Positions 1 to 48,110 of a stretch of 57,838 nt of DNA are shown one piece after another. The notes below the pieces were generated by a model. The model was given only the letters and a program-made list of their open reading frames with translations, was not told the DNA's origin and did no database searches. Each line of letters begins with the position of its first letter. Position 1 is the first letter of the stretch. The translations under genes were made by a program, and so were the position numbers. The DNA comes from Eledone cirrhosa (lineage: Eukaryota). The stretch lies in assembly GCA_964016885.1 (NCBI GenBank), contig CAXHJY010001525.1, positions 1 to 57,838 of the forward strand. The letters run 5' to 3'.

Positions 1-1769
1 TATGTGAATATAGACATAGAATATTCAAAAATATTCTGTATGTTTATAATAAACATTTTGAAGACCTAATCGCTATAGAATAGAATACGTCACGTATTAC
101 AATTAGATTCTCGATAAAAGCAAGGGAAGTAATCTACGCGTTTCATTCTTGTTAGAAATCATCAGGACCACATATCCAGTGCTTTTATCGAGAATGACAC
201 AGCTAGAGACTTATAGAATACTTAGCTGTGTACAGGAACTGGTTTGAAAGAGCGGTTGCCGGTCCGGCAGAAATTAGAAATTGGAATAAATGCTCTGAAA
301 TAGCGATATATATGTGAATATAGACATAGAATATTCAAAAATATTCTGTATGTTTATAATAAACATTTTGAAGACCTAATCGCTATAGAATAGAATACGT
401 CACGTATTACAATTAGATTCTCGATAAAAGCAAGGGAAGTAATCTACGCGTTTCATTCTTGTTAGAAATCATCAGGACCACATATCCAGTGCTTTTATCG
501 AGAATGACACAGCTAGAGACTTATAGAATACTTAGCTGTGTACAGGAACTGGTTTGAAAGAGCGGTTGCCGGTCCGGCAGAAATTAGAAATTGGAATAAA
601 TGCTCTGAAATAGCGATATATATGTGAATATAGACATAGAATATTCAAAAATATTCTGTATGTTTATAATAAACATTTTGAAGACCTAATCGCTATAGAA
701 TAGAATACGTCACGTATTACAATTAGATTCTCGATAAAAGCAAGGGAAGTAATCTACGCGTTTCATTCTTGTTAGAAATCATCAGGACCACATATCCAGT
801 GCTTTTATCGAGAATGACACAGCTAGAGACTTATAGAATACTTAGCTGTGTACAGGAACTGGTTTGAAAGAGCGGTTGCCGGTCCGGCAGAAATTAGAAA
901 TTGGAATAAATGCTCTGAAATAGCGATATATATGTGAATATAGACATAGAATATTCAAAAATATTCTGTATGTTTATAATAAACATTTTGAAGACCTAAT
1001 CGCTATAGAATAGAATACGTCACGTATTACAATTAGATTCTCGATAAAAGCAAGGGAAGTAATCTACGCGTTTCATTCTTGTTAGAAATCATCAGGACCA
1101 CATATCCAGTGCTTTTATCGAGAATGACACAGCTAGAGACTTATAGAATACTTAGCTGTGTACAGGAACTGGTTTGAAAGAGCGGTTGCCGGTCCGGCAG
1201 AAATTAGAAATTGGAATAAATGCTCTGAAATAGCGATATATATGTGAATATAGACATAGAATATTCAAAAATATTCTGTATGTTTATAATAAACATTTTG
1301 AAGACCTAATCGCTATAGAATGAAACGCGTAGATTACTTCCCTTGCTTTTATCGAGAATCTAATTGTAATACGTGACGTATTCTATTCTATAGCGATTAG
1401 GTCTTCAAAATGTTTATTATAAACATACAGAATATTTTTGAATATTCTATGTCTATATTCACATATATATCGCTATTTCAGAGCATTTATTCCAATTTCT
1501 AATTTCTGCCGGACCGGCAACCGCTCTTTCAAACCAGTTCCTGTACACAGCTAAGTATTCTATAAGTCTCTAGCTGTGTCATTCTCGATAAAAGCACTGG
1601 ATATGTGGTCCTGATGATTTCTAACAAGAATGAAACGCGTAGATTACTTCCCTTGCTTTTATCGAGAATCTAATTGTAATACGTGACGTATTCTATTCTA
1701 TAGCGATTAGGTCTTCAAAATGTTTATTATAAACATACAGAATATTTTTGAATATTCTATGTCTATATT
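1..1769. mobile_element. 310-bp tandem repeat array with one hammerhead ribozyme per unit (non-LTR retrozyme-like); internal inversion at ~1321
   Basis: Units start at 1, 311, 621, 931 and 1241 and look identical by eye. From 1321 the same sequence runs reverse-complemented to 1769, then (AT)n. HHRs lie on the minus strand at 129-171, 439-481, 749-791, 1059-1101 and on the plus strand at 1605-1647. Confidence 0.9.
1605..1647 (+). ncRNA. Type I minimal hammerhead ribozyme (310-bp family, representative copy)
   Basis: Helix I GTGGTC/GATTAC (two G-U pairs); core CTGATGA at 1611-1617; helix II TTCT-AACA-AGAA; GAAA at 1632-1635; palindromic helix III ACGCGT; GUA cleavage triplet ending at 1641. 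Enclosed by a perfect 16-bp inverted repeat at 1581-1596/1654-1669. Confidence 0.88.
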
Positions 1770-4255
1770 TATATATATATATATACATATATATACATAT
1801 ATACATATATACACATATATACATATATACACATATATACATATACATATATATATATATATACATATATACATATACATATATATATATATACATATAT
1901 ATACATATATACATATATACACATATATACATATACATATATATATATATATACATATATACATATACATATATATATACATATATATATATACATATAT
2001 ATATACATATATATATACATATATATATATATACATATATATATATATACATATATATATATATACATATATATACATATATATATACATATATATATAT
2101 ATACATATATATACATATATATATACATATATATATACATATATATATATATACATATATATATACATATATATATATATATACATATATATATATACAT
2201 ATACATATATACATATACATATATATATATACATATATATATATACATATATATATACATATATATATATACATATATATATATACATATATATATATAC
2301 ATATATATATATACATATATATATATATACATATATATATACATATATATATACATATATATATATATACATATATACATATATATATATATACATATAT
2401 ACATATATACATATATATATATATACATATATATATATATACATATATATATATATACATATATATATATATACATATATATATATATACATATATATAT
2501 ATATACATATATATACATATATATATATACATATATATATATATACATATATATATATATAATACATATATATACATATATATATATACATATATATATA
2601 TATACATATATATATATACATATATATATATACATATATATATATACATATATATATATATACATATATATATATATACATATATATATATATACATATA
2701 CATATATATACATATACATATATATACATATATATATATACATATATATATATATATATATATATACATATATATACATATATATACATATACATATATA
2801 TACATATATATACATATATATATATACATATATATATATATACATATATATATATATATACATATACATATACATATACATATACATATATATACATATA
2901 TATATATATACATATACATATACATATATATACATATATATACATATATATACATATATATATATATATATACATATATATATATATATATACATATATA
3001 TATACATATATATATATACATATATATACATATATATATATATATATATATACATACATATACATATATATATACATATATATATATATACATACATATA
3101 CATATATATATACATATATATATATATATACATACATATACATATATATATACATATATATATATATATATATACATATACATATATATATATATATACA
3201 TATACATATATATATATATATACATATACATATATATATATATATACATATACATATATATATATACATATACATATATATATATACATATATATATATA
3301 TATACATATACATATATATATACATATACATATATACATACATATACATATATACATATATATACATATACATATATATATATACATATACATATATATA
3401 TATATATATACACATATACATATATATATATACATATATATATACATATATATATACATATATATATATACATATATATATATACATATATATATATACA
3501 TATATATATATACATATATATATATACATATATATATATATACATATATATATATACATATATATATATACATATATATATATACATATATATATATACA
3601 TATATATATATACATATATATATATACATATATATATATACATATATATATATACATATATATATATACATATATATATATATATACATATATATATATA
3701 CATATATATATATACATATATATATATACATATATATATATACATATATATATATACATATATATATATACATATATACATATATATATATACATATATA
3801 TATATATACATATATATATACATATATATATATACATATATATATACATATATATATATACATATATATATATATATATATATATATATATACATATATA
3901 TATATATATATACATATATATATATATATATACATATATATATATATATACATATATATATACATATATATACATATATACATATATATATATATATATA
4001 TATACATATATATACATATATATATATATATATACATATATACATATATATATATACATATATATATATACATATATATATATACATATATATATATATA
4101 CATATATATATATACATATATATATATATACACATATATACATATATATATACAGATATATATATATATATATACATATATATTGACACATATATATAGA
4201 GACATATATATATATATATATAGATATATATATATAGACACATATATATATATAG
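1770..4255. repeat. Compound (AT)n microsatellite, C-interrupted (ATAC)
   Basis: Direct inspection. Confidence 0.97.
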
Positions 4256-4583
4256 AGAGATAGAGAGACCGAGAGAGAGGGAGAGACGGGGGATGGGTAT
4301 AGACAGACACAAAATTCGCGCCGGAAATGTACTGGAAAGATTCGTTTCAAGAAAAGCATAAGACACAGAAAAGAAGGAAGATTTTTGGATAACCATCAAT
4401 GCACGGGGATGAAATGATGATGAAGGGAGGTGGCAGAATGAAACAGAGAGATAGGGGAGATAGAGAGAGAAAGAAAGAGTTAAACTGAGAGAGAGATGGA
4501 GGGAGTGGGAATAAGTGGAGAGATTTAAACGAAGATTGGAAAAATAAAGCAACCGAGAGTGATATAAAAGAGTAAAGTAAATG

Positions 4584-4690
4584 GGAGAGAGAGAGAGAGA
4601 GAGAGAGAGAGAGAGAGAGAGAGAGAGAGAGAGAGAGAGAGAGAAAGAGAGAGAGAGAGAGAGAGAGAGAGAGAAAGAGAGAGAGAGAGG
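4584..4690. repeat. (GA)n microsatellite
   Basis: Direct inspection. Confidence 0.97.
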
Positions 4691-46128: not shown

Positions 46129-46329
46129 GGACAAAATGAAAACACAGATGCACATAGAAAAAACAACCAACCAGTAACATGTAAATAAACAAATAAATAA
46201 ACGAATATAAACACACACAGACACCCGGATGTGGCGCATGCGCAGACTGAGCACACAACACACACACAGAAACATGATGGCGTAGGACAGAACAAAGGAG
46301 AGGCACAAAAACAAAGAAAAGAAACCCCA

Positions 46330-46372
46330 GTCACTGAAGAGGTCACAGAATGTGTGACGAAAGAACTTTGAC
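46330..46372 (+). ncRNA. Minimal hammerhead ribozyme of the Penelope pseudo-LTR
   Basis: GTCA-CTGAAGA-G-GTCACA(GAATG)TGTGAC-GAAA-G(AA)C-T-T-TGAC, in the position expected for Penelope HHRs. Confidence 0.78.
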
Positions 46373-46951
46373 AATATATAAACAACCATCTGGTTGTGGA
46401 ACCAACCAACCAACCGGTAATTTATAAATTCCTAAATTTATAAATTTATTATCATACATTGAAGTGAAAGCAACTGGTGCGTGTGTCTCTTATTGGCAAC
46501 ATGACCCTCCCAAAGTATAACAATATCGGTTTCAACACACGTTTTCAGATAAAGAATCTTGCTAAACAAATTCAGAAACGAAATATATATATACATATAT
46601 ATATACATATATATATATACATATATATACATATATATATACATATATATATATACATATATATATATACATATATATATATACATATATATATATACAT
46701 ATATATATATACATATATATATATACATATATATATATACATATATATATATACATATATATATATATATATACATATATATATATACATATATATATAT
46801 ATATATATGTACATATACATATATATACATATATATATATACATATATATATATATATATATATATATATACATATATATATATACATATATATATATAC
46901 ATATATATATATATATATATATATATACATATATATATATACATATATATA

Positions 46952-48110
46952 TGAATATAGACATAGAATATTCGAAAATATTCTGTATGTTTATAATAAA
47001 CATTTTGAAGACCTAATCGCTATAGAATAGAATACGTCACGTATTACAATTAGATTCTCGATAAAAGCAAGGGAAGTAATCTACGCGTTTCATTCTCGTT
47101 AGAAATCATCAGGACTACATACATATCCAGTGCTTTTATCGAGAATGACACAGCTAGAGACTTATAGAATACTTAGCTGTGTACAGGAACTGGTTTGAAA
47201 GAGCGGTTGCCGGTCCGGCAGAAATTAGAAATTGGAATAAATGCTCTGAAATAGCGATATATATGTGAATATAGACATAGAATATTCGAAAATATTCTGT
47301 ATGTTTATAATAAACATTTTGAAGACCTAATCGCTATAGAATAGAATACGTCACGTATTACAATTAGATTCTCGATAAAAGCAAGGGAAGTAATCTACGC
47401 GTTTCATTCTCGTTAGAAATCATCAGGACTACATATCACATATGTCTATATTCACATATATATCGCTATTTCAGAGCATTTATTCCAATTTCTAATTTCT
47501 GCCGGACCGGCAACCGCTCTTTCAAACCAGTTCCTGTACACAGCTAAGTATTCTATAAGTCTCTAGCTGTGTCATTCTCGATAAAAGCACTGGATATGTA
47601 GTCCTGATGATTTCTAACGAGAATGAAACGCGTAGATTACTTCCCTTGCTTTTATCGAGAATCTAATTGTAATACGTGACGTATTCTATTCTATAGCGAT
47701 TAGGTCTTCAAAATGTTTATTATAAACATACAGAATATTTTCGAATATTCTATGTCTATATTCACATATATATCGCTATTTCAGAGCATTTATTCCAATT
47801 TCTAATTTCTGCCGGACCGGCAACCGCTCTTTCAAACCAGTTCCTGTACACAGCTAAGTATTCTATAAGTCTCTAGCTGTGTCATTCTCGATAAAAGCAC
47901 TGGATATGTAGTCCTGATGATTTCTAACGAGAATGAAACGCGTAGATTACTTCCCTTGCTTTTATCGAGAATCTAATTGTAATACGTGACGTATTCTATT
48001 CTATAGCGATTAGGTCTTCAAAATGTTTATTATAAACATACAGAATATTTTCGAATATTCTATGTCTATATTCACATATATATCGCTATTTCAGAGCATT
48101 TATTCCAATT
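46952..48110. mobile_element. Second 310-bp HHR tandem array with internal inversion at 47437/47441
   Basis: Left arm about 1.6 units (HHRs on minus at 47076-47118 and 47390-47432); right arm about 2.2 units (HHRs on plus at 47598-47640 and 47908-47950). Confidence 0.9.

Follow-up and report, generated by a model that had tools for sequence, protein, structure and literature searches.

We analysed a stretch of 57,838 nucleotides from Eledone cirrhosa (contig CAXHJY010001525.1, here called the window, which is the entire contig C1552 of a 3.0 Gb genome) that carries three separate insertions built of a unit with a 310-bp period. Judged from its sequence, this unit is a type I hammerhead retrozyme of the kind without long terminal repeats (non-LTR). 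The closest described systems are the metazoan non-LTR retrozymes (PMC7229834; bioRxiv 10.64898/2026.07.22.740005), which, in the available portions of those texts, likewise have a low-GC non-coding tandem unit of 150-450 bp, a type I hammerhead, many dispersed arrays, target duplications longer than 4 bp and a link to Penelope-like elements. They differ in that the same portions describe no head-to-head arms, two end windows or microsatellite targets. The available part of bioRxiv 10.64898/2026.07.22.740005 ascribes the arrays to local amplification, whereas the multi-unit arms of the present insertions face outward from an inversion point that varies in position and lies within a single duplication, an arrangement that fits arrays largely made at insertion, with later expansion possible.

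On the side of the enzyme, the nearest parallel is Poseidon PAc in vitro. In the accessible text of PMC11167929, two internal starts that bound the tail lie downstream of a hammerhead, AT-rich DNA is cut and both strands are extended; hammerhead cleavage is not needed, an enzyme dimer is predicted and both strands are nicked. That text gives no homology between start and target and no strand difference in start site, whereas here homology sets the register and each strand uses one site. Penelope-like insertions with an inverted pseudo-LTR (pLTR), as described in parts of PMC3846280 and PMC8557442, share the head-to-head inversion, a one-sided tail of 30-40 bp, duplications of ~8-10 bp and, in Naiad and Neptune, a (TA)n bias. 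Those parts treat the tail as optional and ascribe it to endonuclease resolution, ascribe the inversion to self-priming, and often find no discernible duplication in microsatellites; in the present element, by contrast, the tail occurs once in every inverted copy of the set counted below and the duplication was measured at ~12 bp. Two further parallels concern initiation. SART1Bm (PMC7265360, in part) initiates internally at a telomere-like GGUU/AGG, its short RNA repeats being proposed to anneal to the repeat target and thereby fix where copying begins, and UnaL2 (PMC1636434, in part) shows telomerase-like template slippage at initiation. Both are non-LTR enzymes of the long interspersed nuclear element (LINE) type with one start near the RNA 3' end, unlike the two internal starts per event seen here, for which the enzyme is probably Penelope-like. 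Two internal starts, extension of both strands, a predicted dimer, the one-sided tail, inversion and the (TA)n bias are already published. New here are the strict one-of-each pairing, the register lock, an extra CA at the junction, and starts at a fixed distance from an RNA stem across two families. The literature that we found describes neither a strict rule of one end of each kind nor, in microsatellites, an overhang geometry of 12 bp, and for Penelope-type initiation it has neither pairing that sets the register nor slip-back repeats, though subscription journals or supplementary figures could hold such descriptions.

We consider it likely that the retrozyme is copied by a Penelope-like reverse transcriptase (RT)-endonuclease, with both cut ends of an AT-rich target probably priming at two fixed internal windows of the RNA. 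Unit positions are counted from the base after the predicted hammerhead cut at window 47634. Across the genome, 3' ends are concentrated in two windows and are not spread evenly along the unit: a short site, the AU run or patch at unit 123-139, accounts for 1,274 ends, and a tail site at unit 160-172, ~35 nt on, for 1,188, both counts being lower bounds because they come from fixed-length patterns needing a pure AT flank. When 16 clusters were taken regardless of their ends, 27 of 28 3' ends lay in these windows (13 short and 14 tail, the remainder being 1 doubtful 33-bp piece); as the windows cover ~10% of the unit, the clustering is not due to chance. A 13-base anchor was discarded, its control matches being as numerous as the real ones. 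We looked among the fetched insertions for 3' ends at the hammerhead cut and saw none. By hand count, the first 100 in-register short ends comprised 55 reading TTCA/TATA (a slash marks the junction here and below), 37 running through the patch and 8 stopping at 127-128. The first 100 tail ends in the dominant register comprised 76 ending CCAAT/, 12 ending CCAATTT/, 11 ending CCAATTTCTA/ and 1 other.

The two sites are used as a pair. Among the fetched insertions, clean inverted ones with both ends readable carried one short and one tail end in 63 of 63 cases (62 with two arms, and L111 around a 270-bp filler). Short-short pairs numbered 0 and the only tail-tail pair was a doubtful old copy (L091); the probability was computed as 0.5^63. 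Dropped before this count were two insertions truncated by the limits of the fetched stretch, namely L159 and the first L110 insertion (which repeats L168), as well as L139 (which ends in N), insertion 1 of the window, L091 and the single-arm insertions. The last of these end at the short site in 10 of 12 cases. The filler at the inversion centre of L111 (1498-1771) is an unrelated, GC-richer piece that was likely captured while the two arms were joined.

At short ends, the (AT)n of the target and the RNA patch share their register in 1,258 of 1,274 cases, and the 16 that are out of register include no TTC/TATA or TTCAC/TATA junction. Tail ends are looser, with 1,049 in register and 139 out of 1,188 (Fisher P=4e-29 against the short ends). 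Short starts spread over 127-133 and recur every two bases, the positions between being almost empty. The primer pairs with the RNA, and this pairing sets the register. Starts with a terminal mismatch and paired neighbours exist (TATT/TATA in 4 of the first 100 short ends; L227, L249, L250), and interrupted overhangs start upstream more often (21 of 71 junctions against 8 of 100, P=3e-4), a count that includes some internal variants and a pattern that itself favours upstream starts ~1.4-fold.

One or two extra CA are carried by 14 short ends, ~1% of the total. In the 12 that were fetched, the target is without CA in 8 of 8 with both ends visible, and the internal units are without it in 11 of 11 loci having one. 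The simplest reading of the extra CA is a telomerase-like slip-back and re-copying at the junction. At L171 the tail start was copied three times, and at L237 a fragment of the tail is attached to the short site. Between target and element, stretches of 6-12 nt from the tail window, or a repeated ATT, are present in the short-end flank of L129 and in L237, L171 and L172, as if from aborted or repeated starts. Overhangs ending in C start at tail position 167 and not 163 (7 TTTG cases), and 4 ends in the tail listing read CCAATTAG, with a letter absent from both RNA and target. In L228:7303 and L247:3-330, all array units are A132T except the unit adjoining the short end, which has a target-like patch (T131, A132), and the end is shifted to 127.

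The target duplication is usually 12 bp. Five cases in unique sequence overlap at 11-12 bp, 12-bp solutions hold for L182, L183 and L186, and 12 bp is allowed in L229, L234, L240 and L242. Sixteen pairs matched by hand, with G interruptions at tails and C at short ends, fit 12 bp with the tail start after 163 and the short start after 129, 131 or 133. Since duplications mostly begin with A and end with T, the nicks would fall at T^A on both strands and leave two 12-nt 3' overhangs ending in T. The tracts are older than the insertions and did not grow from the internal AT run, because interruptions are duplicated on both sides and in all 6 informative cases the polarity of the tract carries on across the insertion. 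Targets other than (AT)n are also used (L105, L229, L230, L233, L234, L238).

A second, older retrozyme (family 2; ~320 bp, at least 2,138 matches, ~73% similar, with a U3-A8 hammerhead core, TTGATAA) has the same patch, stem and short-tail pairing (L199:312-822, C1 near 111.534 Mb; L208-L226). Its tail starts at CTAAT, at the same distance from the AGAGC stem as CCAAT in family 1, and not at its own nearer CCAAT, which points to start windows that may be set by a structural ruler. The predicted fold leaves the tail window unpaired and pairs part of the patch; covariation, seen for 4 of the 38 pairs of the consensus fold and in two lineages, is too thin to be taken as proof of structure. A 163-bp tandem mini-unit of family 2 at L218:908-1510 keeps the patch, stems and tail window without the hammerhead, similar short spacings occur among family 2 matches, and this mini-unit may mark the minimal sequence for copying. 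A further variant, the third, occurs in L190 and has a C3-G8 core. Within family 2, a spacing of 4.3 kb at L207 was considered as a coding element and rejected, as it contains no long open reading frame.

Arms cross the cut site up to 45 times, for which a circle or an uncut multimer would be needed as template; circular templates are proposed in the available text of PMC4209133. In 563 units only 110 non-fixed places differ. The majority unit is shared by both arms in 37 of 44 insertions, and in 6 insertions the arms have in common variants that are absent from the rest of the sample. One circle or two templates may have served.

Under the favoured Penelope-type copying, the endonuclease would select AT-rich tracts and nick the two strands at points 12 nt from each other, for the most part at T^A, which would yield two 3' overhangs with a terminal T. 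Protein on the conserved RNA structure would then place one overhang at unit ~129-131 and the other at ~163-170, while base pairing of the overhang with the RNA, over at most 8-9 bp at the patch and over 1-3 bp at the tail, would pick the nucleotide within the window and permit slip-back re-copying. Each of the two enzymes would copy many units in succession from an RNA that is either circular or an uncut multimer, and the two cDNA 3' ends would be joined head to head at variable points. Were the second start to fail, the single cDNA would be joined to the other overhang. Several observations weigh against this scheme. The fetched loci were for the most part picked for having one end against an alternating tract, and a single chromosome carries the majority of them. 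Among 18 loci near GIY-YIG matches (150 of 10,597 candidates were scored), we found no protein-coding element that shares the retrozyme RNA sequence as its own end, so that the partner enzyme is a postulated one. Duplications in L230, L238 and L243 fit 10-11 bp better, one extra-CA end (C19) is accounted for by its target, and in L125 and L153 a single arm changes from one variant to another, as could follow from multimeric templates, from switching between templates or from duplication in place at a later time.

A more specific form of the scheme can be put forward tentatively, and we hold it to be possible rather than probable. A dimer of a Penelope-like enzyme would take a single circular 310-nt RNA as template for both 12-nt overhangs of double-nicked (AT)n, which would act as primers in the manner of telomerase. 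One subunit would work at the AU patch with slip-back repeat addition and the other 35 nt downstream, both as rolling circles.

The starts could also be fixed by protein and RNA shape alone, with the patch incidental (for example captured from the target) and no role for pairing. Non-homologous starts are reported in the available text of PMC11167929, unpaired tail starts exist in our data, the ruler effect seen with the CTAAT of family 2 is in line with such a view, and a fixed nick phase together with one exact start would make the register automatic. One exact start is difficult to reconcile with starts that spread over several positions with a two-nucleotide period and leave the out-of-register positions almost empty; moreover, starts shift with interruptions in the target, and the extra CA needs the primer to re-pair two bases back, all of which makes this explanation quite unlikely. 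In the L1 model, the second arm of an inverted insertion is attributed to twin priming. Applied here, the RNA would truly end at the tail site, the tail arm would come from end-priming, and the short arm from twin priming at the best internal match of the same linear RNA. Such a tail arm should stop at the patch, but the 5' breakpoints of 68 tail arms are spread over the whole unit. Although no other part of the unit matches an (AT)6 primer over as long an unbroken run as the patch does (8 nt, start 131) and both arms usually share a unit (the 37 of 44 above), another 7-nt match at unit 270 goes unused and both sites are internal in vitro (PMC11167929, available text), and we judge this route to be very unlikely. 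It is highly improbable that the junctions arose after insertion, be it by growth of tracts from the AT run, by trimming through recombination or assembly error, or by inversion through antisense-RNA self-priming (PMC3846280, in part). The window is indeed rich in AT repeats, tracts of a kind that is hard to assemble, and the 37 listed short ends that run straight through the patch would suit such an origin, but C131 is absent in 55 of 100 listed short ends and present in 676 of 701 internal units, tail ends without the patch are flanked by the same tracts, and the duplications are intact at both ends, unique targets included. One public run has loose AT ends at unit 139 and 170, which may not be independent of the assembly.

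An earlier, sequence-only reading of this stretch had proposed that reverse transcription starts internally, primed by a nicked (AT)n target annealed to the AU patch, and that the patch acts as a built-in targeting guide. What it had observed at the junctions is real and genome-wide, but is half of the picture, and its interpretation is partly supported. An internal start with priming by a pre-existing (AT)n target and pairing to the AU run is borne out by the register lock. A true guide, in which RNA-DNA pairing at the patch selects (AT)n targets, is unlikely. The register lock is what one would expect of it, and so are a patch that extends over the 10 nt separating the start from a stem, close to an overhang in length, and that is kept as a perfect ATATATATAT in family 2 despite the low similarity; the long patch at the short site of an unrelated protein-coding family (L190, L192, L194); the start at L105, which sits where an overhang other than (AT)n pairs best (8 of 12, hand count); and the preference of single-arm insertions for the short site. 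Selection by pairing should, on the other hand, deplete interruptions that make mismatches in the patch duplex, and no such depletion is seen (hand counts of 39, and of 35 for the other orientation; P=0.73), with the proviso that the test rests on symmetric nicks, so that a tract interruption can face either site. A mismatch-making G at offsets 3, 5, 7 and 9 was counted 5, 10, 14 and at least 10 times in the short-end flank and 12, 5, 5 and 13 times in the tail flank; only offset 3 leans toward depletion (5 against 12, P=0.14). The commonest short start (55 of the first 100 listed) keeps the C131 mismatch although a perfect 8-bp register is available. The tail site, at which 1,188 of 2,462 3' ends start, has no patch and a 2-nt match, and ~30 of the first 100 out-of-register tails are without a terminal pair. 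Arrays with the patch mutations A132T and C131A still entered (AT)n (L227, L228/L247, L246), as did protein-coding families whose short site matches the target by only 4-5 nt (L078, L200, L202, L206), and the use of targets other than (AT)n points the same way. PMC8557442, in its available part, credits the microsatellite bias to the endonuclease linker, and the L200 protein carries that C-x4-C-x2-C motif. Judged on natural variation, the choice of target does not appear to depend on complementarity to a guide. On these data the patch is mostly not a targeting guide.

An exact 25-mer spanning the ribozyme has 14,929 matches in the genome, mostly in head-to-head arrays with both 3' ends outward. 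The window contains 10 copies of the hammerhead core, with the cut predicted after GTA at 47634. Stem II opens with a U.U pair instead of G-C, and an Rfam search at gathering and E-value thresholds returned no hammerhead match, so the motif is identified by inspection; its architecture is like that in the available text of PMC4209133. As in retrozymes, the unit is tandem and non-coding, within the 150-450 bp range and below 50% GC, in arrays of up to 45 units; each unit has, by inspection, a type I hammerhead with a short palindromic helix III; and the copies are dispersed, with target duplications over 4 bp (10-12 bp, mostly 12). Insertions cross the predicted cut site, which fits a circle or uncut multimer. 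The insertions consist of 310-bp units end to end, without the RT and GIY-YIG coding of an autonomous Penelope-like element. They do have the form of Penelope cargo, namely head-to-head inverted arms with 5' truncation and a tail of 30-40 bp on one side only in all 63 clean inverted insertions, with 34 nt between starts 129 and 163. The unit is present at 90-100% of sampled words in public runs under four organism codes, from a family common to close relatives or from relabelled samples. The same lookup listed no RNA run with the unit, a result that is uninformative on expression.

The features of the window are collected in Table 1. Insertions 1 and 3 are inverted arrays and insertion 2 is a single arm. 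The three junctions at 1769, 17484 and 46952 that the sequence-only reading had taken as the shared end of independent insertions do belong to three separate insertions and enter (TA)n where it placed them, at unit 128, 130 and 130; the end at 1769 reads GTCTATATT/TATATA, and that at 46952, on the minus strand, TTCA/TATATA. In the intact unit the sequence runs on after the short-site ends as CATATATATCG (131-141). The distance from the ribozyme cut, given as about 125 nt, is a fair estimate of the measured 128-130 nt. The insertions are not of 310 bp, as had been stated, but of at least 1,769 bp (insertion 1, clipped by the contig start), 197 bp (insertion 2) and 1,158 bp (insertion 3). The end at 48110, regarded as a fourth and placed 46 nt further on, lies 36 nt past the short site, at unit 166. 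It is no separate event: because the same 12-mer, ACATATATATAT, frames both 46952 and 48110, these are the two ends of one insertion, and the partner that went unrecognised is the obligatory one, the known Penelope tail.

Table 1. Features of the retrozyme insertions in the window (a slash in a junction marks the 3' end of the element)
Feature	Position	Strand	Description
Insertion 1, left arm	1..1321	-	4.3 identical 310-bp units; 3' end beyond contig start
Insertion 1, right arm	1317..1769	+	Short-site 3' end, unit 128, TATT/TATATA
(TA)n/(TATACA)n tract beside insertion 1	1770..4254	no strand	
Insertion 2, single arm	17288..17484	+	Unit 244 through cut to 130; short-site end TTCA/TATATA; TG-type tract on both sides
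12-bp target duplication ACATATATATAT, left copy	46941..46952	+	Putative 3' overhang priming at the short site, start after unit 129
Insertion 3, left arm	46953..47437	-	Short-site 3' end
Insertion 3, right arm	47438..48110	+	Tail-site 3' end, unit 166, CCAATT/ACATAT
Type I hammerhead motif	47598..47640	+	Stem I GTAGTC with GATTAC, CTGATGA, short stem II with U.U first position, GAAAC, palindromic helix III ACGCGT; by inspection
Short start window with AU patch	47757..47773	+	Unit 123-139; A130-C131-ATATATAT139; 14 of 17 letters fit (TA)n in one register
Predicted stem AGAGC with GCTCT	47783..47830	+	Unit 149-153 with 192-196; encloses single-stranded tail window and GC hairpin; kept in family 2
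Tail start window	47794..47806	+	Unit 160-172; commonest junction CCAAT/ATAT
12-bp target duplication ACATATATATAT, right copy	48111..48122	+	

Three other features of the window were recorded. To the left of the AT tract, 46300-46582 is the end of another repeat, near-identical to L206:1500-1740, which also enters (AT)n. A 4-bp TATG duplication at 47079-47082 affects one strand of hammerhead stem I in the left arm of insertion 3. A 112-bp tandem dimer at 35230-35460, 95% identical, is unrelated to the retrozyme.

Elements with RT and GIY-YIG are present in the genome, and they end in (AT)n with the same short-tail pairing. In L078, L200, L202 and L206 the short sites match the target by only 4-5 nt, and one family (L190, L192, L194) has a long patch. 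In at least four protein-coding families (L200, L201, L205; L190, L192, L194, L196; L202; L206) the short and tail ends that adjoin (AT)n are separated by ~35-63 nt, each at a microhomology that contains AT. Two of these families carry U3-A8 hammerheads with a palindromic ACCGGT. L200 contains an unbroken frame of 938 residues with RT and GIY-YIG between 673-bp repeats. A retrozyme-like piece in L190 was considered as the partner's own end and rejected, since it is a separate insertion in the flank.

How inverted, tailed and tandem Penelope-like insertions form, and why microsatellites are favoured, is described as open in the available text of PMC8557442. The ~1,200 young insertions of one short RNA give predictions at the level of the nucleotide, namely nicks 12 nt apart, one overhang per window, a register set by pairing and slip-back repeats at ~1% of short ends, and the question becomes testable with a 310-nt template. 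The finding ties the telomerase-related Penelope-like enzymes to an initiation that is paired with the template and adds repeats, and it supports the view that retrozyme arrays arise for the most part at insertion, through the Penelope machinery. If the step with an enzyme dimer on one circle is true, it would account at once for how Penelope-like elements come by a tail, a head-to-head inversion, tandem arrays and a preference for microsatellites. One could then also edit the patch so as to shift insertions or send them to other targets.

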